Source of the DNA: Nannocystales bacterium
Lineage (GTDB): Bacteria > Myxococcota_A > Polyangia > Nannocystales > Nannocystaceae
DNA length: 64,000 bases
Direction of reading: 5' to 3'
Assembly (NCBI GenBank): GCA_050633305.1
Contig: JBOEGF010000018.1
Coordinates: forward strand, 672,001 to 736,000
Part shown: piece by piece, positions 6,671 to 18,849 of the stretch
How positions within the stretch are numbered: position 1 is the stretch's first letter
Layout: every line of letters begins with the position of its first letter
Notes under the pieces: generated by a model
What the model saw: the letters and a program-made list of their open reading frames with translations, nothing else
The model's database searches: none
Told to the model about the DNA's origin: nothing
Position numbers and translations under genes: made by a program

Positions 6671-8191
6671 GTGGCGTCTCGCATCTGGCTCCAGGCCTGT
6701 TTCGACTTCGCAACGACGCATGCGATCGAGGCCCGATACGTGGATGCGCTGCATGCTTTCGCCTATCCCAACCCCCGGGGGGGCCCGCCTCCGCCACCGG
6801 AACCTCGCTGGGCGGAGGACTTCGAGGCGTTGGAGCAGCTGCGGTGCGCACACCCGCTGGACGAACTACAGCTCCGCACATCCTTGGTCTCGGATCTGTC
6901 GGTCGAGGTCGACGCGGGGCAGGCGGCGATTTTTGCCCGGCGCATTGCCACCGTCGAACGCCAGCTGATCGGCCTGGACGATGCGACCGGGCGGCTGCTC
7001 CGTGTCGGACTCCGACAACGGCTCGAGGGGATTCTCGCTGCGCCACGCCCTCGCGCGCTTCGGGTACGGGCGCTCGCCGACTTCTACTACTCTTTTGCTG
7101 GACGCTGGCTTCACGAGCGAAGCAGCTCGTCACCCGCTCCTTCGCTCGCGGACGCAACCGCTTCGTTGGCGTGGGAGACGGTGTTTGAGGGTGGTGAACT
7201 CGCGGTGATCGACGGTGTGTTCTCCACGGGACCGGTACACGCGAATCTGCTGAGACTGCGTCCCGGTTCGGTGCGTGCTCGGGTGCTGGACCGCCGTGAT
7301 GCGGTCGCCCGCGGGACCCCCTTCGCCGAGCACGTGGATGCGCTGGGTGCTGCGGCTGCGATCTCCGGCGGTTTCTTCTTGTACAGCGAACCCGACATCG
7401 CACCGCCGTCGCAGCGCTTCGACCCCGTGGGACTGCTCGTGTCTGGGGGAGACGTCCTCTCGCCGCCGTTGTTCTGCCGCGGCGCGCTCGTCTTCGATGC
7501 GCAGGGGCGGTGGTCCATCGAACGCCGTGGTCCCGCCGGGGTTCGTGTCGTCCAGGGGAAGGCGTCCGTTGAGCTTGCGTCCGCGCTCACCCGCTGCGCC
7601 TGCGAGCAAGGCCCGGATGTTCCATCCGTCTCGGTCGCGGCGGGCCGGGTCGTCGCGACGGGGCGCCGGCTCGACGTGCCGCTCAATGGCTTCGTCGTGC
7701 CTTCGTCCGGGGCGTGGACCGTGGGTCAGGCCGTGTCGTTCTCGGCGCCGCGCATGGCCGAGGGGACCGAGGTGCACGAGGGGGTCGCAGGTGGTCCACT
7801 GTTGCTCGACGAAGGGGCGCCCTGTTTGGATCTGAGAGCGGAGGGGTTCTGGGGCACGGCTCCTCCTCTGACCTTCTCTCAGGACGAAACCGGCGATCGC
7901 AATACGCTTCCTCGGTTGGCGGCGGGCATCGACGGCGACGGCAATCTCATCCTTGTTGCCGTCGATGGTCGGAACTTCAAACGGGCGCTGGGGATGACCT
8001 TGGGCGAGGTCACTGATCTGCTCTCGAACCTCGGGTGCGTGGTGGCGACGAACCTCGACGGAGGGTCCTCGAAGCGAATGGTCGTCGGTGGAAAGACGCT
8101 CGATCTCGCGTCGACGGAGGTGGAGCAAGGAACCCCCGAAACGGCCAAGGTCCGGCCTGTTCACACCGCCGTCGTGTTCATGACTGCGTGA
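6671..8191 (+). CDS. Phosphodiester glycosidase family protein (NAGPA/DUF2233) with unknown N-terminal helical domain
   Basis: ISGGFF, GGPLLL, PRLAAG..VAVDGR..GMTL and ATNLDGGSS motifs. Start uncertain. Confidence 0.8.
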   Translation: MASRIWLQACFDFATTHAIEARYVDALHAFAYPNPRGGPPPPPEPRWAEDFEALEQLRCAHPLDELQLRTSLVSDLSVEVDAGQAAIFARRIATVERQLIGLDDATGRLLRVGLRQRLEGILAAPRPRALRVRALADFYYSFAGRWLHERSSSSPAPSLADATASLAWETVFEGGELAVIDGVFSTGPVHANLLRLRPGSVRARVLDRRDAVARGTPFAEHVDALGAAAAISGGFFLYSEPDIAPPSQRFDPVGLLVSGGDVLSPPLFCRGALVFDAQGRWSIERRGPAGVRVVQGKASVELASALTRCACEQGPDVPSVSVAAGRVVATGRRLDVPLNGFVVPSSGAWTVGQAVSFSAPRMAEGTEVHEGVAGGPLLLDEGAPCLDLRAEGFWGTAPPLTFSQDETGDRNTLPRLAAGIDGDGNLILVAVDGRNFKRALGMTLGEVTDLLSNLGCVVATNLDGGSSKRMVVGGKTLDLASTEVEQGTPETAKVRPVHTAVVFMTA

Positions 8192-8202
8192 TAGTGTCGG
8201 GC

Positions 8203-10695
8203 ATGCCTTACGCTTCGTTTCGCGTTCTTGCTGTGTCTGTGTTGCCGGCGGTTGTGTTGTTGGGTTGCGGTGATGACACGACCGCGACCCCGACGGAAGG
8301 GTCCACGGGCACCCCTGAGACGACCACAGACGATGGGACCACGACGGGCGGGGGGACCACGATGGGGTCCACGACGTCCGTCGATCCGGATGGGTCCGGA
8401 TCCGGCTCGACGAGCGCCGACGGGAGCACGACGTCGGGGGGCGAGAGCAGCAGCTCGAGTACCGGGACACCCAACCTCGACCCTGAGGCTGAGGACGACT
8501 TCTATCTGACCGACACCGCCGCAGCTCCACTCGCTGTGGATGCGGCGGCGGGCGTGCTCGGGAACGACGCCGACCCGGAGGGGGAGGACCTCGCGGTCTC
8601 GGACTTCGATGCGGTGAGCGAGGCCGGTGGAACCGTCGAGGTCCAGCCGGACGGTGCCTTCGTCTACACCCCGCCAGATCCATTTTGGGGAGAGGACGCG
8701 TTCACCTACACCACCGCGGACCCCCTGGGCGGCACCGCTCAGGCACGGGTCCGCGTTGCCGTGGCCCCGACCTCGGAGTCGCTCGCGGAGGTCGTCGCTG
8801 CCACGGCTGGAGTCCGGGTGAGCGGACCGAGCTCGGGCGATCGGTTCGGTGTCTCTGTCGCCGGTGGCGCCGATGTGAACGGCGACGGCTTTGCCGACAC
8901 GGTTTATGGAGCTGATGATGCGCTCGCCGACGGTCGCGGCGCGGCCTACGTCGTGTTCGGCGGTCCCGACGCAGCAGCGATCGACGGTGCCGATGTCGAG
9001 GCGGAGACTGGCGGCTTCGCCATCTTGGGACCCGCGGCGGCGTCATCGACCGGGTTTTCGGTCGCCATGCTCGGGGATGTCTCCGGGGATGGCCTCGGCG
9101 ACATCGCGGTCGCCGTGACGGATGGCGGGGGTCCCGGAGGGGTCTACGTCGTGTTCGGGTCCGCTGCACCGGGGACCGTCGATCTCGCCGCGCTCGGCGG
9201 CGATGGATTCGAGATCACCGGGGGAGACTCCTTTGGCCAATCCGTGGCGGCGGCCGGAGATGTCAACGACGACGGGTTGCAGGACATCGTGGTGGGCGAC
9301 CCTGACGCCGGCGGTGGCAGCGGGGCGGCCGTGGTTGTGTTTGGGAAGTCCGGCACGGAGACGGTCGACGGCGCAGCTCCGGGCGCGGAGGGGTTTAGGG
9401 TCGATGGAACGGTTGCCGGAGGCTCTCTTGGGTTTGCGGTTGCGGGCGCCGGTGACGTCAACGTTGACGGTTTCGACGATGTGGTGATCGGTGCGTCGGA
9501 GTCTGCGGTCGTCGGGCGGGTACTCGTCGTGTTCGGAAAACCGGATACCGCCGCTGTGTCGGAGGACGACCTCGCCGTTGCGGCGGATGGCGGCATCAGC
9601 ATCACCGGAGGCGCAGCGTTCGACCTCGTGGGCCGTTCGGTGGCGGGGGCGGGTGACGTCAACGGAGATGGGCGGCCTGACATCATCTTCGGAGCGCCGG
9701 GCATCGATGTCGGAGATGACAACGGTGCGGGTCGTGTCTTCGTCCTGTTCGGTGGCGTGGACATCGAGAGCACGACACTGGATGCCCTCGCGATGGGCGT
9801 CGGGGGCTTCGCGCTCGACGGCGCGAACCAGTTCGATTTTGCCGGCTGGTCGGTCGCGGGGGCCGGCGACGTCAACCGCGATGGGTTCGCAGACATCATC
9901 GTCGGCGCACAAGGAGCGGACACCCCGGTGAGCAACGCCGGCCGGGCCTATGTTCTATACGGTGCGTCCGATCTCGCGGGCGGAAGTCTTGCGGACTTTC
10001 CGGTCGGGGATGGTGGGTTTCATCTCGACGGGGAGGCGTTTGAGCACTTCGCGGGCGGTGCCGTTCACGGGTCTTCTGACCGCAACGGCGACGGGTTCGA
10101 CGACCTCGCGCTAGGCTTGCCCGAAGCCGAGTCCGACGCGGGGTTGGGCTATGTCTGCTTCGGCGGCAACTACGTCGGTGTCGACCGGCTTGGCTTCACG
10201 GCCGAGGCCGACATCGTGGTGGGCAGTGAGGCCGCTGAGACGCTGGTCGGCGGCCGGGGGGACGACGAACTGCAGTCCTTCGGGGGGGCCGATGTCCTGA
10301 GCGGCGGGGCAGGGGACGACGTCGTCAGCATCATCGACGGAGGCTTCTTCCGCATCGACGGTGGAAGTGGAACGGACACGCTTCGACTCGAGGGCAGCGG
10401 GTTCTCGCTCGATCTCGCGAACTTCTTCGACGCTGCGATCAACGGTATCGAGGTCATCGACCTGACCGGTGAGGGCGACAACGGGCTGTTCCTGGGCACC
10501 CATGAGCTGCTCGCACTCTCACCCACCAGCAACACGCTGAGGGTCCTGGGGGATGCCGGGGACCAACTCGTGGCTGACCTCGCCGGGGCGGGCTTCGTGG
10601 ACGAGGGGTCGGACGGAATGGTCACGACCTACTCGAACGGCGTTGCATCCATTGTTGTCGATGATGCGGTCGATGCGTTTGTATCCCTGGACTGA
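8203..10695 (+). CDS. Lipoprotein adhesin: Ig/cadherin-like (Big_9) domain + FG-GAP/integrin-alpha propeller + RTX-like Ca-binding repeats
   Basis: LLGC lipobox, GVLGNDADPEG..DGAFVYTP..FTYT, multiple GDVNGDGxxDxxxGA repeats and GGxGDD nonapeptides. Confidence 0.85.
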   Translation: MPYASFRVLAVSVLPAVVLLGCGDDTTATPTEGSTGTPETTTDDGTTTGGGTTMGSTTSVDPDGSGSGSTSADGSTTSGGESSSSSTGTPNLDPEAEDDFYLTDTAAAPLAVDAAAGVLGNDADPEGEDLAVSDFDAVSEAGGTVEVQPDGAFVYTPPDPFWGEDAFTYTTADPLGGTAQARVRVAVAPTSESLAEVVAATAGVRVSGPSSGDRFGVSVAGGADVNGDGFADTVYGADDALADGRGAAYVVFGGPDAAAIDGADVEAETGGFAILGPAAASSTGFSVAMLGDVSGDGLGDIAVAVTDGGGPGGVYVVFGSAAPGTVDLAALGGDGFEITGGDSFGQSVAAAGDVNDDGLQDIVVGDPDAGGGSGAAVVVFGKSGTETVDGAAPGAEGFRVDGTVAGGSLGFAVAGAGDVNVDGFDDVVIGASESAVVGRVLVVFGKPDTAAVSEDDLAVAADGGISITGGAAFDLVGRSVAGAGDVNGDGRPDIIFGAPGIDVGDDNGAGRVFVLFGGVDIESTTLDALAMGVGGFALDGANQFDFAGWSVAGAGDVNRDGFADIIVGAQGADTPVSNAGRAYVLYGASDLAGGSLADFPVGDGGFHLDGEAFEHFAGGAVHGSSDRNGDGFDDLALGLPEAESDAGLGYVCFGGNYVGVDRLGFTAEADIVVGSEAAETLVGGRGDDELQSFGGADVLSGGAGDDVVSIIDGGFFRIDGGSGTDTLRLEGSGFSLDLANFFDAAINGIEVIDLTGEGDNGLFLGTHELLALSPTSNTLRVLGDAGDQLVADLAGAGFVDEGSDGMVTTYSNGVASIVVDDAVDAFVSLD

Positions 10696-10747
10696 GTCGG
10701 TTTGACGCACCGCGACTGTGCTGCGTACCGTTTGAGAGAGCATCGCC

Positions 10748-11911
10748 ATGGACATCGCTAGCATTGGACCGCTCGACGTCGAACCCGAGCAGGTTCGCCG
10801 AGCGTTCGAGGCCGTTGCCGACCGACTCGAGGGCCGCAAACTCGGCTTTCTCTACCTTCCGCACGACGTCGACGCGGGGCCGCTGTTGAAGGCCGCGTGC
10901 GACGGTCTCGGGGACCGAGTGGTGGGCGCCACGACGGGCGGGGCGGCCTTTACCGAGCGTGGCTTCACGCGTGACGGTGTCGTCGGAGGGGTGATCGGCG
11001 GAAGCGGATTCGACTATTCGGTGGCCGTGGCCCACGACCTCTCCCCGCGCAAGACACAACGCCTCGAAGACGCGTGTGGGGAGCTGGTCGTCGCTGCGCG
11101 GAAGTCGGTGAGCCGTGTTCCCGCGTTGTTGGCCCTTGGCGACGGTCGCTCCATCGATGGCGTTGCTTTAACCGAGACGCTCAGCCGCAGCCTCCCACCG
11201 CACTGGCGTATCTTCGGCGGGACCGCAGGAGACTCCCTCGTCTTCGAGGACCGATCTCGGGTCTTCGTCGACGGCGAGGTGCTCGACGGGGCGGCGGTCC
11301 TCGTGGGCTTGTTCTCGGACTCGAACTGCGGCGTGGCGGTTGGGCATGGTTGGTCAGCCGTGCAGGGGGCCAAGGAACTCGCGGTGAGTGAGATCGACGG
11401 GCACAACCTGATCGGGCTCGATGGGCGCCCCGCGGCGGAGGTGTTCGGGGAGGAGCTACACCGCTTGGGGTTGGTGCCGGATCCCGCAGTGCTCGTCCCC
11501 GACGCGTCGCGGTATCAATTCGGGGCGCGCTCGCGGTTCGGTGAACTCACGGTTCGCGCGGCACTCGAGTTCCCCGGGGACGGCAGCATCCGTCTCGCCG
11601 GAGGGGTCACCTTGGGGACGGTGCTGCAAGTCGTCGCGACCACGCCGGAGCGCCTGGCCGAATCTGCAAGCGAGGTCGGTCGCCGAGCGGTGGCCGAGTT
11701 CCCCGACGGAAGGACCCCTCGGGGCGGGCTGGTGTTCGATTGTGCCGGGCGCTTGGCCTATTTGGAGGACGCCTACCCAAGTCAGCTGCGTGGCTTCTTT
11801 GCCGGCCACGCGTTTCCTGTCGTCGGCGTGACCTCATACGGTGAGATCGCGAAGTTCGGTGGGAGCCTCGAGGGATTCCACAATGCTACCGCCGTGATGG
11901 CGGCATGGTGA
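10748..11911 (+). CDS. FIST-domain (FIST_N/FIST_C) signal-transduction protein
   Basis: VVGATTGG, FGGTAGD, GHGW, LDGRPA, FDCAGR, GVTSYGEI and FHNAT motifs. Confidence 0.85.
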   Translation: MDIASIGPLDVEPEQVRRAFEAVADRLEGRKLGFLYLPHDVDAGPLLKAACDGLGDRVVGATTGGAAFTERGFTRDGVVGGVIGGSGFDYSVAVAHDLSPRKTQRLEDACGELVVAARKSVSRVPALLALGDGRSIDGVALTETLSRSLPPHWRIFGGTAGDSLVFEDRSRVFVDGEVLDGAAVLVGLFSDSNCGVAVGHGWSAVQGAKELAVSEIDGHNLIGLDGRPAAEVFGEELHRLGLVPDPAVLVPDASRYQFGARSRFGELTVRAALEFPGDGSIRLAGGVTLGTVLQVVATTPERLAESASEVGRRAVAEFPDGRTPRGGLVFDCAGRLAYLEDAYPSQLRGFFAGHAFPVVGVTSYGEIAKFGGSLEGFHNATAVMAAW

Positions 11912-11915
11912 TCGA

Positions 11916-13709
11916 TTGAAGGCGCTGCTCAAGGTCGGCTACGGGTGCAACGAGCACTGCACCTTCTGCCACACGCAGGACGTCCGACACATCGACGGTG
12001 CATCCGAGGAGGTCGAGGCCAAGATCGATCGTGCGAAGGCGCTTGGCCATTCGATGGTGGTGCTCTCGGGGGGAGAATCGACGATCCGCCCCGAGTTCTT
12101 CTCTTGGGCCCGCCGCATCGCGAGTCTGGACATGGATCTGGGGTTGGTCACCAACGGTCTGGTGCTCGCCTATCCGGACGTCATCGAGCGGTTGGTCAGC
12201 CTCCGTCTGCGCTACGTCTACATGTCCTTGCACGGCGGGGAGGCGCGCATCCACAACCGCCTGGTTCGGCGAGACTCCTTCGAGGCGGCTGCGTCGGCGT
12301 TGAACAACCTCTCGGGCCGCGGGCTCGACCTGACCGCCAATTGTGTCGTCACGCGGCAGAACGTGGAGCACCTCCGGGGCTTGGTCGACCACGTCGCGCG
12401 GCTGCCCGATGTGCGCTTGAAGTTCTCGTGGGTGGAACCAAAGGGCGGGGCCGCTCATCTCCTCGAGACGTTGGTCCCCCCACTCGAAACCGCTGCTGCT
12501 GCCGTGTCGGAGGCGCTCCGTCGATGGGACGAGACGACCGGACGGCCCTCCCAGGCTGTTCACGGGGGATTTCCGTTGTGCTCGTTGCCTGGCTTCGAGT
12601 CGCGCTACGACGACCTACGCACACATGACTACTGGACCATGAGCGAGATCGGCGAGCCCGATCTGTTCCCGATCGACGATCGAAACAAGTCGAAACCCGC
12701 GCCGTGCGAGCGCTGCAATCTGCGCGGAGGCTGCCCGGGACTGTTCCGACTGTACGGCGAACGCTTTGGTCACGACATGCTCCGCCCGCGAGAGGATGGG
12801 GTCCGGAGTAACAGCATCGACTTCGTCTACGAACACATGCAGACCGATGGGTACGCCGAGGGCGACGCCTGCCCGGTTTGGGCCGCGAGCGCGCGCCCCT
12901 ACGATCGGGACCGTCACGTCTTCGTGCGGCACGGCGCGAAGGTCGGCCGTTATCGCGCGCTATCCCGGGATTTCGACGATGACGAACTCGAGCGCATGAA
13001 GTTCGACACGGCGCAGCTGTACCTCGACGCGTCCCGGAAGTCCGCACCGAACGACTTCGCCCGCGACCTCGTCAAGCTCGACCGTAGCGAGCTGTGTCGT
13101 GAGTGCCCGGGCCACGACACCTGCGCGGGGATGTTCGAGCCGCGCTTCGAGGATGTCTTTGGTCGCGATGACGCGGTCGTCCGAGCACACCTCGGGTCGC
13201 TGCGCGGCGACGTGCTCGACGTGGGCTGCGGCGAGATGCCCTACGCCGACACCCTGAGCACGGGAATCGAGTCCGGTGCGCTGCGATATCTCGGTGTCGA
13301 CCCCGACGCTGAGGCCTTGGCGGCCGTTGCGGCCCGTCTGCCGCCGGTTGAGCTCCACGTCGGCACCTTGGCCAGCATCGACCCGCAGCGAACATTCGAC
13401 CACGTCTTGGTGCTGCGGAGCTGGAACCACCTCCCCGATCCGCACGGCTTCGCGGAGCGCGTTGCGACGATGCTCCGCCCCGGTGGCTCCCTGGTGGTCG
13501 TGGACAACGTCGCCTTCGCCCTGTTGAGGACTCCGGCGCAGACACGGGTGGCCCAGGGGTCGGCCGCCCGCTGGGAGCATTGCCGAAACGATGACGACCA
13601 GCAGGCTCACAGCGTCCTCGAGAGTGCCGGGTTGACGCTGCAGCGAAGGCTGCCGATCCGCCCCTCGGGAAGCAACCAGTGGATGCTCCTGTACACTCGC
13701 CCTGCATGA
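11916..13709 (+). CDS. Radical SAM enzyme (HxsC-like) fused to class I SAM-dependent methyltransferase
   Basis: CNEHCTFC (CxxxCxxC), SGGE, TNG, PLC, CERCNLRGGCPG, a second CRECPGHDTCAG cluster, then VLDVGCG..GVDPD..FDHV..LRPGG. Confidence 0.9.
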   Translation: MKALLKVGYGCNEHCTFCHTQDVRHIDGASEEVEAKIDRAKALGHSMVVLSGGESTIRPEFFSWARRIASLDMDLGLVTNGLVLAYPDVIERLVSLRLRYVYMSLHGGEARIHNRLVRRDSFEAAASALNNLSGRGLDLTANCVVTRQNVEHLRGLVDHVARLPDVRLKFSWVEPKGGAAHLLETLVPPLETAAAAVSEALRRWDETTGRPSQAVHGGFPLCSLPGFESRYDDLRTHDYWTMSEIGEPDLFPIDDRNKSKPAPCERCNLRGGCPGLFRLYGERFGHDMLRPREDGVRSNSIDFVYEHMQTDGYAEGDACPVWAASARPYDRDRHVFVRHGAKVGRYRALSRDFDDDELERMKFDTAQLYLDASRKSAPNDFARDLVKLDRSELCRECPGHDTCAGMFEPRFEDVFGRDDAVVRAHLGSLRGDVLDVGCGEMPYADTLSTGIESGALRYLGVDPDAEALAAVAARLPPVELHVGTLASIDPQRTFDHVLVLRSWNHLPDPHGFAERVATMLRPGGSLVVVDNVAFALLRTPAQTRVAQGSAARWEHCRNDDDQQAHSVLESAGLTLQRRLPIRPSGSNQWMLLYTRPA

Positions 13710-14170
13710 GTGCTGCGCCTGGTTTTCCCGACGACGCTGCGGAGATCGATGCGGACGACGGTCGCGTGTCGCTGGTTGTCGATGCCGAGCTGTACCCGCG
13801 TGATGCCGTGTATGCGGCGGTCATGCCGATGCTCGCGACGGCCTTCGTCATGCTCGACCAGTCACCGCAGGGGAGGACCCGCATCGAGCTGCGTCCCCGC
13901 GAAGCCTCCAACCCCGGCGCGTTGCGAGCGATGCTCGGGGGGCTCGCGAACGAGCTGTTGGTCGCGACGACCCGATCGGAGATCGCAAAACGACGGGGAG
14001 GCCTGTTGGAAGCTGTCACGCGCCGCGCCGTCTCGGGCGCGATGGGTGCACCGTCGCTCGACGACCTCGAGGGCTTTGATCTGGATGGGGATGCGTTTGA
14101 AGATCCTCTGGGCATCGCCGATTCGTGGGACCGCAGCCACGGCACGCCACAAGGAAAGGACGACGCATGA
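13706..14170 (+). CDS. hxsD: His-Xaa-Ser system protein HxsD-like
   Basis: VDAELYPRDAVYAA..ANELL..R..I..EDPLGIA..W pattern. ATGA overlap with the radical SAM gene; located upstream of HxS-repeat precursors. Confidence 0.75.
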   Translation: MSAAPGFPDDAAEIDADDGRVSLVVDAELYPRDAVYAAVMPMLATAFVMLDQSPQGRTRIELRPREASNPGALRAMLGGLANELLVATTRSEIAKRRGGLLEAVTRRAVSGAMGAPSLDDLEGFDLDGDAFEDPLGIADSWDRSHGTPQGKDDA

Positions 14171-14406
14171 GCACGCTTCGATTCCACAAGGAGCTGTATT
14201 CGGGGATGGCTGTCGATGCCGCGATGAAGCGCTTCGAGCGGTTCGCGACCTTCGAGGTCGCCGATGACGCCAGCCACTGGACCGTGGTGGTGAAGGCGGA
14301 ACGCCCGGAGCAGCAGACGCAGCTGGAGCGGGAGCTGGGTAACTTCGCGTTGGGACTCACGATCGAGCGCGGTGGTCCGGACGTCGCCGAAGACGCCTCA
14401 GACTGA
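14167..14406 (+). CDS. Small HxsD-like protein
   Basis: FHKELYSGMAVDAA..ELGNFAL resembles a short HxsD repeat. ATGA overlap with the previous gene. Confidence 0.7.
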   Translation: MSTLRFHKELYSGMAVDAAMKRFERFATFEVADDASHWTVVVKAERPEQQTQLERELGNFALGLTIERGGPDVAEDASD

Positions 14407-14452
14407 TATGCTGGGCGGGCGCGACGGTTGAGTGGCGCATTGGAGTGCGAGG

Positions 14453-14776
14453 ATGGACGACGACCGCAAGACAGATGATGGCGACGCTTTGCCGAGCTTT
14501 CGCGCGGCGGCGTCATCCGTGCTGGGCACCGACGCCCGTACGATCTCCGCCCGCGCTCGCTCCGCCGCCGATGAGCCCCCAACTGCCCCGGGAGCTGTGA
14601 TCGGGGGGGAAACGGCGGCCGGTGGTGGCCCTTCCCACTGCAGCCACGGGTCGCACGGCAGCCACGGGTCGCACGGTAGTCACGGATCGCACGGCAGCCA
14701 CGGGTCGCACGGCAGCCACGGGTCGCACGGCAGCCACGGGTCGCACGGTAGCCACGGGTCGCACGGCTCCTGGTAA
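14453..14776 (+). CDS. His-Xaa-Ser repeat precursor peptide 1 (HxsA-like), core SHC(SHG)14SW
   Basis: Acidic leader, conserved LPS..VLG..AR.ISARAR..ADEPP block, and 14 in-frame SHG triplets with synonymous variation. Confidence 0.9.
   Translation: MDDDRKTDDGDALPSFRAAASSVLGTDARTISARARSAADEPPTAPGAVIGGETAAGGGPSHCSHGSHGSHGSHGSHGSHGSHGSHGSHGSHGSHGSHGSHGSHGSW
14642..14767 (+). repeat. 14 x 9-nt coding tandem repeat (18-nt higher-order period)
   Basis: agccacggg/tcgcacggc alternation read directly. Confidence 0.95.
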
Positions 14777-14886
14777 GAGGGGGCTGTAGGCCCCAGTGCG
14801 AGGCTCAAAAACGCGGTCCATCCAGCCCACGGGTCGCCCGGATCAAGCCGGCAAGCCTGATATCATCCACGAAGGGGGCGCTTCCG

Positions 14887-15189
14887 GTGAATGATCGAAA
14901 CGAAGACCAGACAGCGGACGAGACGAACGACGACACGATCGAGTTGCCGTCGTATCAAGCCTCGCCGTCTGCGGTCCTCGGCGAGAACGCCCGCGAGATT
15001 TCCGCGCGTGCCCGCGCACAGGCCGACGAGCCGCCGGCGGGCAACGACACGATCAACGGGGGCGGAACAATGTTGGCGCCCAGCCACTGTAGTCACGGCT
15101 CGCACGGCAGTCACGGCTCGCACGGCAGCCATGGCTCGCACGGAAGTCACGGTTCACACGGAAGTCACGGAAGTCACGGGAGCTGGTAG
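14887..15189 (+). CDS. His-Xaa-Ser repeat precursor peptide 2 (HxsA-like), core SHC(SHG)10SW
   Basis: Paralogue of precursor 1 with the same leader block and 10 SHG triplets. GTG start after a purine-rich stretch. Confidence 0.9.
   Translation: MNDRNEDQTADETNDDTIELPSYQASPSAVLGENAREISARARAQADEPPAGNDTINGGGTMLAPSHCSHGSHGSHGSHGSHGSHGSHGSHGSHGSHGSW
15091..15180 (+). repeat. 10 x 9-nt coding tandem repeat
   Basis: agtcacggc/tcgcacggc-type units read directly. Confidence 0.95.
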
Positions 15190-15243
15190 CCGAATGAGCC
15201 GCCCGATCGAAATCCGGAGGTGGGTGTTCGAGCCCAGCGCTGC

Positions 15244-17520
15244 ATGAGCGACGAATCGCCCAGCAACGAGGGGGCTCCGACCCCGAGCGAAGAGACCGGG
15301 ACAGGTCCCGCCCCGACCTCCGAGAGCGAAGCCGTGCGGCGTCGGCTCACGATGTTCGTGCAGCCGCGCACAAAGATGGAGAGCGCAAAGGGTCGCCGAC
15401 GGGTGCTCTACGTGGGCACCAACCCTCGTGAGTCGGCGAACCTGCAGGAGCTGCTCAACGATGCGGTCGACCCTGGGTTCGGTGTCGAGCATGCGCCCGA
15501 CGAGACGATCGCTGTCGAGATGCTGAATCGCTCGGACAAAGCGTTTCAAGTGGTTGTCGTCGAGCTCGATCGCGACCGACGAATGTGGACTCGGCTGGTC
15601 CGCGACCGACGACTGCCCAGCATTCCCCTGATCGTTGTCGACCACCGGGGCACGCCTGAGGAGCGCTCTCTTCGTCGATCTCAGCTCCTCAAGGAAGGCG
15701 CGGCGGGGTACGTCCGCCGTAGCGAGCTCTCCGGAGCCATGCTCGAGGCGCTTGTGTTCGCTGCGCTCGAGCGCGCACAGATGCGTCAGGCCCTCAGCGA
15801 GGTCCAAGAACGATTCGCCCTGGCGGTCCGCGGAGCCAACGACGGGGTGTGGGAGTGGATTCTCGAAACCGGTGAGATGCACTTCAGCCGGCGATGGCGA
15901 GAGTTGCTCGGCTACGGTGTCGACGACCTCTCCAACTCGGTCAACGAGTGGTTTGACCGCGTCCACGCCGAGGACATCGCGGCCCTCAAAGAGGACATCG
16001 ACGCCCACCTCAATGGGGACAGCCCGTACCACGAGAGTGAGCATCGGATTCGGGCCAGCGACGGAACCTACCGCTGGGTGATCTCGCGCGCCGTGGCCCA
16101 GCGTCAAAACGGACGTCCGGTTCGGATGGCCGGGTCGATCACCGACACGTCCGACTACCGTCTGCGCGAGGAAAAGATCCGAGAGGAGTCGCGTCAGGAT
16201 GCATTGACCGGACTTCCCCGTCGGGAGCCGTTCATGGAACAGCTCGCGCGGGCGGTTCGACTCGCGGACACCGACGAGACGTACTGCTTCACCGCCTTGA
16301 TGGTCGATGTTGACCGCTTCCGGTGGCTCGCGGACTCCATCGGACACCAAGCGGCGGACGGCATGCTCGCCATTCTCGCCCGCCGCCTGGTCGCCTGCGT
16401 CCGCCCTGGGGACACCGTCTCCCGCTTTGGTGGGGACAAGTTCGCCGTGCTGCTGGAGAACCTTCGCGATGTCGACACGGCGACAGACATCGCCAACCGG
16501 ATTCGCCTGTCCGTGCACGAGCCGTTCGACGTCGAAGGACAGACGGTCTACACCACCGTCTCGATCGGGCTGACGACCTCGGACCGAGCGTACGCCGATG
16601 TCGACGAGGTCATCAGCGATGTCGCCGCTGCCGCGAACAAGGCCAAGGAGCGCGGACAGGATCGCCACGAGGTGTTCGATACGAAGATGCGCATCGACGC
16701 ATTGACGACGCTTCGCCTCGAAGTTGCGTTGCGTCAGGCGGTGGAGCGCGAGGAGTTCGAGCTGCACTACCAGCCGATCGTCGATCTCAAGTCCGGCGCG
16801 CTGATGGGCTTCGAAGCGCTCACCCGCTGGCGTCACCCACGTCGTGGCATCGTCTCACCGGCCGAGTTCATCCCCGTGGCCGAGCAGACTGGGCTCATCA
16901 TTCCGATTGGGCGGTGGGCGATTCGTGTCGCGCTCGAACAACTCGGTCGTTGGCAGGCGACGCTCCCGAGCAGCAACGGTGGCAAGCCACTGTCGATGAG
17001 CGTCAACCTCTCGGGCCGACAGATCGCGGACCCGCGGTTGCTCGACGAGATTCGTACCGCGATGACCGAGAACAACATCGCCGAGGACACGTTCCGCCTC
17101 GAGCTGACGGAGTCCGTTCTCATGGACAACTCGGAGTCCGTCTCGCGGACGCTGGCGACCTTGCGGTCCAACGGCGTGCGGATCTGGGTCGACGACTTTG
17201 GTACCGGGTACTCGTCGTTGAGCTACTTGCATCGGTTCCAGTTCGATGGGCTCAAGATCGACAAGAGCTTCGTCGACGCGTTGGACGGGTCGCCACAGGG
17301 CGCGGCGATGATTCGAACGATCCTCAGCCTGGCGTCGAACCTCGGCGTTGAGGTGATCGCGGAGGGGATCGAGTACACGGTCCAGGCCGACCAACTCCTC
17401 GAGCTCGGATGTGTGCGAGGCCAGGGCTACTTGTTCAGCCGGCCGATCGCTGCAGCGAAGGTTCAGGGATACGTCGCCGGAGGCTCAACCGAGCCCGCGG
17501 GTCCGCCTGTCGCATCGTAG
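15244..17520 (+). CDS. Pseudo-REC + PAS + GGDEF(GGDKF) + EAL protein, probable c-di-GMP phosphodiesterase
   Basis: GANDGVWEW..RVHAED PAS, DALTGLP, RFGGDKF, FEALTRW, LELTES and DDFGTGYSSLSYL. Confidence 0.92.
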   Translation: MSDESPSNEGAPTPSEETGTGPAPTSESEAVRRRLTMFVQPRTKMESAKGRRRVLYVGTNPRESANLQELLNDAVDPGFGVEHAPDETIAVEMLNRSDKAFQVVVVELDRDRRMWTRLVRDRRLPSIPLIVVDHRGTPEERSLRRSQLLKEGAAGYVRRSELSGAMLEALVFAALERAQMRQALSEVQERFALAVRGANDGVWEWILETGEMHFSRRWRELLGYGVDDLSNSVNEWFDRVHAEDIAALKEDIDAHLNGDSPYHESEHRIRASDGTYRWVISRAVAQRQNGRPVRMAGSITDTSDYRLREEKIREESRQDALTGLPRREPFMEQLARAVRLADTDETYCFTALMVDVDRFRWLADSIGHQAADGMLAILARRLVACVRPGDTVSRFGGDKFAVLLENLRDVDTATDIANRIRLSVHEPFDVEGQTVYTTVSIGLTTSDRAYADVDEVISDVAAAANKAKERGQDRHEVFDTKMRIDALTTLRLEVALRQAVEREEFELHYQPIVDLKSGALMGFEALTRWRHPRRGIVSPAEFIPVAEQTGLIIPIGRWAIRVALEQLGRWQATLPSSNGGKPLSMSVNLSGRQIADPRLLDEIRTAMTENNIAEDTFRLELTESVLMDNSESVSRTLATLRSNGVRIWVDDFGTGYSSLSYLHRFQFDGLKIDKSFVDALDGSPQGAAMIRTILSLASNLGVEVIAEGIEYTVQADQLLELGCVRGQGYLFSRPIAAAKVQGYVAGGSTEPAGPPVAS

Positions 17521-17607: not shown

Positions 17608-18849
17608 CTACATCGTGAACGGGTAGGTCGTGCCCATCTGACCGCTCTTGAAGCGACGGAAGCTGGCCGACTTCACGGCATCTTCCACACACTTGCCCAA
17701 CGCGGTCCCGCCGTGCGGGGCGTCTGCGGCGGCGGAGAGCACCTTGCCTGTATCGCCCTGGATCGAGAGCTTCACACGGACCTTGGTGCCCGCAGCCGCT
17801 CCGTGCTTCGACCCGCACGCCTTGGCTTTGCTCTTGACGGGCTTGATCCCTGCGCGGACATCGTTGGTCGACAGCTTGCTGGGCAGCGTCTTGTCGAGGT
17901 CCTTCTTGTCGAGTTGTGCCCGGCGAGCTTCCGCGCACCCGGGTTTGTCAGGGTTGAGCAGGCAGTCGCTTGAGAATTTCCCGTCGGTCTTTCCACCCGG
18001 GGCGGGCTTGGGCTCGGGCTCGGGCTCGGGAGCGGCCCCCGCCGTAGGCTTGCGTCGGCGCTTCCGGGTCGACGCGCTCGCGCTGACCTCGGGTTCTGCC
18101 TCGACCTCCGGCTCGGGTTCGGGCTCAGGTTCGGGTTCGGGCTCGGGCTCGGGCTCAGGTTCAGCCATCGCGAGCTTGGCAGGTTCGGGCTCGGGCTTGC
18201 GGTCCGCGACCGGTTCGGGCTTGGGCTCGGGCTTGACGGGTGCCGCGGCGACCGTCTTGGGCTCGGGCTTCTTGTCACCACCGGCGAACCCGACGAAGTA
18301 GATCGCGAGGCCGGCGGCGGCGAGTCCCAGAAGGAGCAACAGCATCTTGTTTCCGCCGCCTTCCTCCTCCTCGCCCGAAGACGAGCTGACCGTCACCGGG
18401 GTGGGCTCGGCGCTTGGCTTGGACTTGGCGGCAGTGTCGGCGACGAGCGCGGCGGCAGCTTTTGAATCGTCGCTCTCCTCGGGCTCGTCGTCGGCGGAGG
18501 TGTCGTTTGACGGCGTGGCGGCGACCGGCTTGGAGTCCTCGTCGCTAGACTTGTCGTCGTCCGAAGATTCTTCTCCGGAAGCCTTGCCGTCGGAACTGGC
18601 CGAGGCGGCCGGCTTCGCGTCGGACTTTTCTTCCGCGGCCTCCCGAGCGGCGTCCTCGTCGAGCACGACGGAGGTCGCAGCTTCGCCACCGAACCCGCCG
18701 ACGCCGAGGTCTCCGTCCTCGTCGGCGCTCGCCCCGATGTTGGGGCTCGAGTCCTCGTCGTCGTCGTCTGAGCCAAACGCGGCAGCAAGGTCCTCGATAT
18801 CCTGGAGCCCGGAGCTCTCTGCGTCGTCCTTTGATTTCTCGTCGACCAT
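17608..18849 (-). CDS. Bitopic membrane protein: acidic N-terminus, TM helix, PE-repeat linker, AgmX/PglI-like (TonB-C-like) C-terminal domain
   Basis: [19 protein letters not shown], a (PE)n run, and C-terminal [35 protein letters not shown]. Confidence 0.7.

Follow-up and report, generated by a model that had tools for sequence, protein, structure and literature searches.

His-Xaa-Ser (HXS) systems have been characterized in E. coli and Klebsiella, where the canonical set HxsD-HxsB-HxsC-HxsA blocks phage DNA entry (Li et al., Nat Commun 2026, PMC13128918). According to the accessible part of that article, HxsA is cleaved and acquires a +8.0 Da change of the '+C/-4H' type on its SHRSS motif, of which the two outer serines and the histidine are essential, and HxsC binds HxsD in pull-down assays; 99.7% of the systems counted belong to Pseudomonadota, and the radical chemistry is unsolved, reconstitution having failed in the hands of the authors. 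In the accessible part of the study of poly-cyclopropylglycine (PMC9062424), HxsB appears just as an annotated cluster in a network. A further group of families, referred to below as the HxsA4 type, is present in NCBIfam, and our literature search returned no paper naming HxsA4, HxsC4, HxsA3, HxsA2, NF038313, or NF038332. Here, we describe a locus with genes of this type at positions 11916–15189 of a 64,000-nucleotide stretch (hereafter, the window) from a Nannocystales bacterium (assembly GCA_050633305.1, contig JBOEGF010000018.1, positions 672,001–736,000). It encodes a fusion of a radical S-adenosylmethionine (SAM) enzyme with a methyltransferase (rSAM-MT), two small HxsD-like proteins (D1 and D2), and two His-x-Ser repeat precursors (A1 and A2). 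In our judgment, the locus is rather probably a lineage-specific, trimmed sub-cluster of a Myxococcota HxsA4-type His-Xaa-Ser system.

As read from the window, the five open reading frames (ORFs) share one strand orientation, and the first three are connected by ATGA stop/start overlaps at 13706–13709 (rSAM-MT/D1) and 14167–14170 (D1/D2). The G+C content at third codon positions (GC3) of all five genes is 0.74–0.83, the same as in neighboring genes. A preliminary description of the locus, made from the sequence alone, had reported this co-orientation and coupling, repeat tails SHC(SHG)14SW and SHC(SHG)10SW, and the lack of an adjoining HxsB, protease, or transporter gene, and all of this is as claimed.

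The cores of A1, SHC(SHG)14SW, and A2, SHC(SHG)10SW, comprise 15 and 11 HxS units, respectively. Both proteins exceed the cut-off of the HxsA4 model NF038313 (99.3 and 64.4 vs. 55 bits), and a search of the whole genome recovered them again as HxsA4 with 98.8 and 62.5 bits. Together with the score of D2 on HxsD_rel (70.5 vs. 41 bits), these matches bear out the earlier assignment of the locus to a His-Xaa-Ser-type system. The A1 frame is open from a GTG at 14432, but the likelier start is the ATG at 14453, which is preceded by a purine-rich GGAG/GAGG stretch. The acidic A1 leader carries the motifs LPSF and ARTISARA..ADE, with LPSY and AREISARA..ADE as the corresponding motifs of A2. Imperfect DNA repeats of 18 bases encode both arrays, and in A1 each copy specifies two SHG units. 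Pfam yielded only a sub-threshold Collagen row for A1 and A2, with no peptidoglycan-binding domain, and their acidic N-termini show no hydrophobic stretch on inspection, no signal-peptide predictor having been applied. The pattern (HxS)≥4 or (Hxx)≥6, sought in all six frames throughout the 11.0-Mb genome, returned seven rows, of which A1 and A2 are the only His-x-Ser arrays, the other five being Arg/His-rich frames. Hence, the arrays are not a product of chance.

Comparison of 33 complete precursors demonstrated cores of 9–20 HxS units, a terminal W in 32 of them, and the shared leader motifs LP[STV][FY] and REIS.RA..AD. Thus, the leader/core build is conserved; no protease or transporter gene is found nearby. 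A precursor of the A2 type is present in all six close relatives (L026–L031), and two precursors occur in three of the seven loci of the lineage, namely, the window, L026, and L028. Two traits proposed in the preliminary description as marks of a distinct variant are therefore not distinctive: the length of the arrays, as 9–20 units (49 in one unlinked locus) are normal for the HxsA4 type, and the duplication of the precursor, seen in just three of these seven loci. The 49-unit HxsA4-type protein (L131; G122:C18, 7686–8393, minus strand) has HGS and occasional HAS units and a GQW end, and is encoded behind HxsD and HxsB in a genome without a fusion match.

The claim that the large first gene encodes a radical SAM-methyltransferase fusion is upheld by Pfam, with PF04055 at residues 6–158 (79.8 bits, threshold 29.5) and, at approximately residues 430–575, PF08241 (44.6 bits, threshold 21.2) and PF13649 (42.9 bits, threshold 27). 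Its N-terminus, MKALLKVGY, agrees with that of homologues. In an alignment of 16 sequences, the invariant residues include C11, C15, and C18 of the motif CNEHCTFC (CxxxCxxC, residues 11–18), two further cysteine tetrads (222/264/267/273 and 319/394/397/403), and G437 and G439 of the methyltransferase motif I, VLDVGCGE (approximately 433–440), the GxGxG motif of class I enzymes. An AF2 model of the protein (pLDDT 85.1, pTM 0.81) was compared with solved structures using Foldseek. The N-terminal half matched BlsE, PqqE, SkfB, GDGT-MAS, and DesII, and the C-terminal half matched PrmA, NodS, and other Rossmann methyltransferases, with no solved chain matching both halves. The two tetrads and the BlsE/PqqE/SkfB-like fold would fit a putative SPASM/twitch region, yet no Pfam SPASM row was obtained.

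No NCBIfam model reaches its cut-off on rSAM-MT, the best rows being HxsC4 (79.3 bits, cut-off 500) and HxsC (64 bits, cut-off 267.9). The possibility that rSAM-MT is itself HxsC4 was ruled out at 79 vs. 500 bits. When 8000 candidates from a collection of 5.8 billion proteins were scored, 839 matched at E ≤ 1e-10. The best 120 of these 839 matches are 51–88% identical to the query; 119 of the 120 cover 99–100% of its length and one covers 74%, and nearly all share the two-domain make-up. Those of the 120 that bear a name are called simply 'radical SAM protein', with Nannocystaceae, Polyangiales, or Myxococcota given as the source. By these sequence comparisons, rSAM-MT is a large, conserved, unnamed, and uncurated Myxococcota family.

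The two small coupled genes had been described as HxsD-like, and the NCBIfam scores agree with this for both. D2 is a member of HxsD_rel (NF038315), whereas D1 reaches only 19.9 bits on HxsD (TIGR03976, cut-off 50) and is homologous but divergent. Its orthologues in full clusters pass this cut-off, and its identity to a second HxsD, encoded elsewhere in the genome on contig C14, is 31%. The C-terminal tail FD(F/L)xx(E/D)xF(E/D)DPLGIAxSW is invariant in 23 HxsD-type proteins, the unlinked C14 copy included, and looks like a docking motif. Structure prediction of an rSAM-MT–D1 complex gave weak support for an interaction, with a score of 0.48 against 0.01 for the best control, at least 24% of contacts agreeing between runs, and a partner pLDDT of at least 59. 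In the calibration of this procedure, 116 of 157 solved complexes passed the mark, as did 2 of 215 mismatched pairs; only 18 of the 157 solved complexes, but both of these mismatches, passed it with a score of at most 0.60. D2 was also considered as a private partner of rSAM-MT, and this was rejected, since HxsD_rel is found between HxsD and HxsB in the fusion-less locus L125 (59.4 bits).

Scanning of one genome per species confirmed 179 relatives of rSAM-MT, and 80 loci were kept, with genes called by tblastn and simple ORF filters. Downstream of the fusion, 42 of the 80 loci contain an HxsD-like gene, 34 HxsB, 22 an HxsC4-like gene, and 31 a same-strand peptide with (HxS)≥3, these peptides being precursors homologous to A1 and A2. 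The six-gene order fusion-HxsD-HxsD_rel-HxsB-HxsA4-HxsC4 is observed in 20 loci, e.g., in Enhygromyxa salina SWB005 (L050), where NCBIfam identifies HxsB (581 vs. 370 bits), HxsC4 (607 vs. 500), and HxsD (67.4 vs. 50). The short layout of the window occurs only in L026–L031, whose enzymes are 73–89% identical to that of the window. In L027–L031 (73–86%), the precursor is directly followed by a PAS-GGDEF-EAL gene, and the L026 sequence ends inside its second precursor. At this locus, the window lineage (the window and five clear relatives) has fusion-D-D_rel-A4 only. No Hxs gene was evident in 37 of the 80 loci, nine of which have a downstream flank of less than 2.5 kb. Nine other loci combine the fusion with HxsD-like and HxsB genes, with no (HxS)≥3 peptide in the available flank (two of these flanks being shorter than 3 kb): L072, L078, and L084, as well as L048, L065, L069, L079, L083, and L104, in which the set is fusion-HxsD-HxsD_rel-HxsB.

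Ten HxsA4 loci from genomes without a fusion match contained HxsD-HxsD_rel-HxsB-HxsA4 cores, orphan precursors, and the 49-unit array; HxsD_rel was recognized by its model in L125 and by eye in L130. In L122 (G170:C5, 7190–11001), the order is HxsD, HxsD_rel (68.1 bits), HxsA4 (118 bits), a 310-aa protein, and a 551-aa HxsC-like radical SAM protein. The stand-alone 310-aa protein corresponds to the middle and methyltransferase parts of the fusion, being 42% identical to its residues 295–595. This split and re-ordered arrangement provides independent support for the methyltransferase, the radical SAM enzyme, and the repeat peptide working together. The notion of a distinct variant survives in part: the enzyme family is uncurated, but the precursors, HxsD_rel, and HxsC4 were already in NCBIfam (NF038313, NF038315, and NF038332).

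A genome-wide search for a separate hxsB found a single copy, at C14:59129–60610 (570 bits; TIGR03978 cut-off 370). The canonical arrangement, in which an HxsB of at least 370 bits adjoins the other genes, is not seen at the locus. Beside this HxsB are the second HxsD and an ORF of 840 aa that matches radical SAM twice; its C-terminal part is HxsC-like (69.7 bits on HxsC), below both the HxsC and the HxsC4 cut-offs. Neither this part nor the fusion, at 64 bits, qualifies as canonical HxsC (TIGR03977, at least 267.9 bits). The region C14:48000–84000 of this genome (G000; L022 and L023) holds a loose radical SAM group formed by 492-aa, HxsB, 840-aa, 589-aa, and 353-aa proteins. Orthologues of the 589-aa and 840-aa proteins adjoin the fusion in 8–11 other loci. 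Unlinked HxsBs over the cut-off were found in the window's own genome and in four of five relatives, and in the one other relative searched no HxsB was detected at E ≤ 1e-30. At the thresholds used, an HxsC-like ORF of 819–839 aa lies beside the unlinked HxsB in two of these four relatives (G406 and G409). HxsC4 over the cut-off of 500 was not found in the window's own genome (best 107.7 bits) or in five close relatives. No His-x-Ser ORF was found beside the C14 HxsB (minus strand, C14:55500–66000), nor elsewhere in the genome besides A1 and A2.

In a maximum-likelihood HxsB tree of 42 rows (midpoint root; matches aligned over less than 430 residues left out), all five unlinked HxsBs group together with 100/100 support, and their clade arises within the HxsBs encoded in the clusters of relatives that carry the fusion; four HxsBs from loci lacking the fusion are set apart by a 100/100 branch. 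Most simply, a single ancestral cluster would have become dispersed over the genome in the window lineage. Consequently, the earlier notion of a single maturase fits the locus but not the genome, which has HxsB and further radical SAM genes on C14, and relatives' clusters hold both HxsB and HxsC4.

The association of the fusion with HxsA4 was also assessed in an even sample of 401 Myxococcota genomes, with HxsA4 counted at E ≤ 1e-5 and the fusion at E ≤ 1e-80. HxsA4 matches occur in 167 genomes, 125 of them over the cut-off, and in 29 of 29 genomes of one family. The fusion is present in 25 genomes, 24 of which also have an HxsA4 match (lists compared by hand), and the single one without is 77% complete; since related genomes are not independent, these ratios overstate the link. 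Five 'fusion-alone' genomes were tested, those of Nannocystis exedens and N. pusilla included; each encodes an HxsA4 above the cut-off at another site, which in three genomes is on the same contig at a distance of 20–70 kb.

By analogy with the binding of HxsD to HxsC in E. coli, the acidic leader may serve as a handle, and the HxsD-type proteins would bring the repeat core to the enzymes. The fusion, translationally coupled to D1 and D2, may bind at least D1, for which modeling gave weak support, and would act repeat by repeat on overlapping S-H-G-S units. Its methyltransferase half could place a SAM-derived one-carbon unit on the His or Ser of each S-H-G-S, and the radical SAM half with its two putative auxiliary clusters would then make hydrogen-abstracting cross-links. 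Such a two-step route would sum to '+C/-4H' (+8 Da), as on SHRSS of canonical HxsA. In trans, the unlinked HxsB probably still contributes, and the outcome would be a rigid, His-derived peptide carrying multiple modifications. A bolder proposal, which we consider quite unlikely, is that the fusion, D1, and D2 alone suffice for a SAM-derived one-carbon His-Ser bridge on every S-H-G-S unit. If so, the array of 10–14 units would become a ladder-like cross-linked polymer, and the four-gene set would be a natural minimal system revealing the '+C/-4H' chemistry of HXS-type effectors.

Several observations count against the view of the locus as a trimmed sub-cluster with this presumed activity. The scores of rSAM-MT on HxsC and HxsC4 (64–79 bits) are little above those on MftC or MoaA, so the label 'HxsC-like' is weak for it. 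In approximately 28 loci whose downstream flank extends to 4 kb or more, the fusion has no Hxs gene nearby, and 143 of the 167 HxsA4-positive genomes have no fusion; therefore, the fusion is an accessory of a subset rather than a core maturase. D1 of the window lineage, besides scoring below the HxsD cut-off, has lost the FIDRC and AWR motifs kept elsewhere, and its function could be changed or lost. Predictions in the score range of the rSAM-MT–D1 complex are more often wrong than right unless the pairing is likely beforehand. Finally, the HxsB tree has a midpoint root and includes four outgroup rows, support for the subgroup to which the window clade belongs is 93/99, and the unlinked HxsB is a putative enzyme for A1 and A2.

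The preliminary description regarded the locus as self-contained, i.e., the fusion, D1, and D2 would be the sole maturase, and the C14 genes would serve something else. The co-linearity of the five genes, with overlaps or short gaps, is in line with this, as are the conservation of the layout lacking HxsB and HxsC4 in L027–L031, the one relative of five without a detectable HxsB, and the retention at the locus of its own HxsD-like pair though C14 has another HxsD. Nevertheless, we hold this explanation to be unlikely, given that the unlinked HxsB is, by the tree, an orthologue of the in-cluster HxsB of relatives, has been kept in its own genome and in four of five relatives, and has no other His-x-Ser array in the genome to act on, and that the C14 radical SAM genes adjoin the fusion in other genomes.

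It also seems improbable that the radical SAM enzymes act on another target, e.g., the FD..DPLGIA.SW tail of HxsD-like proteins, and that the repeat proteins remain unmodified in a metal-binding or structural role. Genome-wide, the fusion nearly always accompanies HxsA4 (24 of 25 and 5 of 5 genomes), HxsA is the demonstrated substrate in the canonical system as far as the available text of PMC13128918 goes, and precursors recognized by enzymes typically have such a conserved leader ahead of a perfect repeat; these points outweigh the nine fusion loci with HxsD-like and HxsB genes that lack a repeat peptide in the flank, and the invariance of the D1 tail in 23 sequences. Decay of the locus, with HxsB and HxsC4 gone from the cluster and the remaining genes non-functional, could be suspected from the divergence of D1 to below the HxsD cut-off and from the absence of detectable HxsC4 in six genomes, the window's own and five close relatives. 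This is very improbable: none of the five ORFs is disrupted and their GC3 is gene-like, all catalytic cysteines and methyltransferase motif I are present, and seven genomes have kept the layout and the perfect arrays despite up to 27% divergence of their enzymes.

As for the biological role, a housekeeping or physiological function, or one related to metals, looks more likely than an HXS-like phage barrier, because the precursors have no recognizable export signal or peptidoglycan-binding domain and HxsA4 is spread widely and evenly across the phylum. PADLOC (2023) returned generic viperin-type radical SAM rows only and, holding no Hxs model, is uninformative on defense. Among public sequencing runs, no RNA run was listed with the locus, and one DNA metagenome contained 0.38 of its words.

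The precursor and HxsD_rel families are curated, the canonical system is characterized, and long arrays are typical of the HxsA4 type, so that the locus stands nearer to known systems than the preliminary description supposed. What the genomic comparison adds is an unnamed conserved rSAM-MT family tied to HxsA4 peptides, its split-gene counterpart, and a dispersed system with a minimal local remnant. As a caution for annotators, the genes of an Hxs system can be scattered through a genome. The HxsA4 type is found in 167 of 401 sampled Myxococcota genomes, yet has no naming paper that we could find. The earlier statement that the product is uncharacterized holds for this type, but not for canonical HXS, where the +8 Da change and the anti-phage effect are described in the available part of PMC13128918. 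As the same part of that paper has the canonical phenotype established and the radical chemistry not, the small gene set of the window offers a practical entry point, and its 10–14 identical target units per substrate multiply any mass shift per unit.

Features of the locus and its flanks (positions in the window).
Feature	Position	Strand	Remarks
FIST-domain sensor-like protein, 387 aa	10748–11911	+	Pfam FIST 84.9, FIST_C 59.4 bits
rSAM-MT (fusion of radical SAM and class I methyltransferase domains), 597 aa	11916–13709	+	TTG start
D1, divergent HxsD-like protein, 154 aa	13706–14170	+	TIGR03976 19.9 bits
D2, HxsD_rel protein, 79 aa	14167–14406	+	NF038315 70.5 bits
Precursor A1, HxsA4 family	ORF 14432–14776, likely 14453–14776 (107 aa)	+	NF038313 99.3 bits
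18-base tandem DNA repeat, 7.3 copies, 92% matches	14636–14767	+	Tandem Repeats Finder
Precursor A2, HxsA4 family, 100 aa	14887–15189	+	GTG start; NF038313 64.4 bits
Tandem DNA repeat, periods 9 and 18	15091–15179	+	Tandem Repeats Finder
PAS-GGDEF-EAL protein, 766 aa by longest ORF	15220–17520	+	Pfam EAL 256.5, GGDEF 114.3, PAS_3 77.4 bits

The upstream FIST gene, separated from rSAM-MT by a gap of only 4 bases, is a co-oriented neighbor possibly belonging to the same operon; it occupies this position in five of six close relatives and in none of the 74 other loci. On the other side, the PAS-GGDEF-EAL gene begins 30 bases past A2 on the same strand. It follows the precursor in five of six close relatives (the L026 sequence ending earlier) and in seven full-cluster loci with 62–70% identity, and may be regarded as a co-oriented neighbor and only a candidate member of the system. 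Among close relatives, this gene is 85–92% conserved, more than the Hxs genes. A scan of 10400–15600 gave no promoter-like and two terminator-like sites, not above shuffled sequences, and is uninformative on operon limits. Farther upstream (8035–10695, plus strand), the window encodes a repeat protein of 886 aa that is rich in Gly and Asp and has a hydrophobic stretch at its N-terminus; it is kept upstream in close relatives with 58–87% identity. Downstream, an acidic 413-aa protein (17608–18849, minus strand) contains an extended (Pro-Glu)n run and a single hydrophobic segment.

Among solved structures, the SPASM/twitch-type radical SAM enzymes BlsE (7vob), PqqE (6c8v), and SkfB (6efn) are the best matches to the N-terminal half of rSAM-MT (Foldseek E 1e-8 to 3e-7). 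They share with it extra cysteine clusters after the core barrel but have no fused Rossmann methyltransferase. The poly-cyclopropylglycine (TVG) system, so far as the accessible part of PMC9062424 describes it, resembles the window system in its leader peptide, tandem short motif, and repeated radical SAM action, whereas the enzyme family and the chemistry are unrelated.

With canonical HXS, the window system has in common a His-x-Ser repeat substrate, a small HxsD-type protein, and radical SAM maturases; an HxsB orthologue is present in the genome, and the canonical unit SHRSS (S-H-x-S) recurs as repeated S-H-G-S. In contrast, canonical HxsA is an effector whose signal peptide, peptidoglycan-binding domain, and roughly five basic HxS repeats have no counterpart in the window precursors, with their 100–107 aa, acidic leader, lack of a domain match, and 10–14 perfect SHG units. 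Further differences of the window system are that none of its proteins scores above the HxsC cut-off, that a methyltransferase fusion is added, and that the HxsD-like gene is joined by another one. The closest relationship is to the full clusters of the NCBIfam HxsA4-type set, e.g., L050, which share with the window the precursor family, HxsD_rel, a fusion of 52–57% identity, and the order of the first three genes; relative to them, the window locus is without HxsB and HxsC4, its HxsB lies on another contig, its D1 has diverged, and its precursor is doubled.

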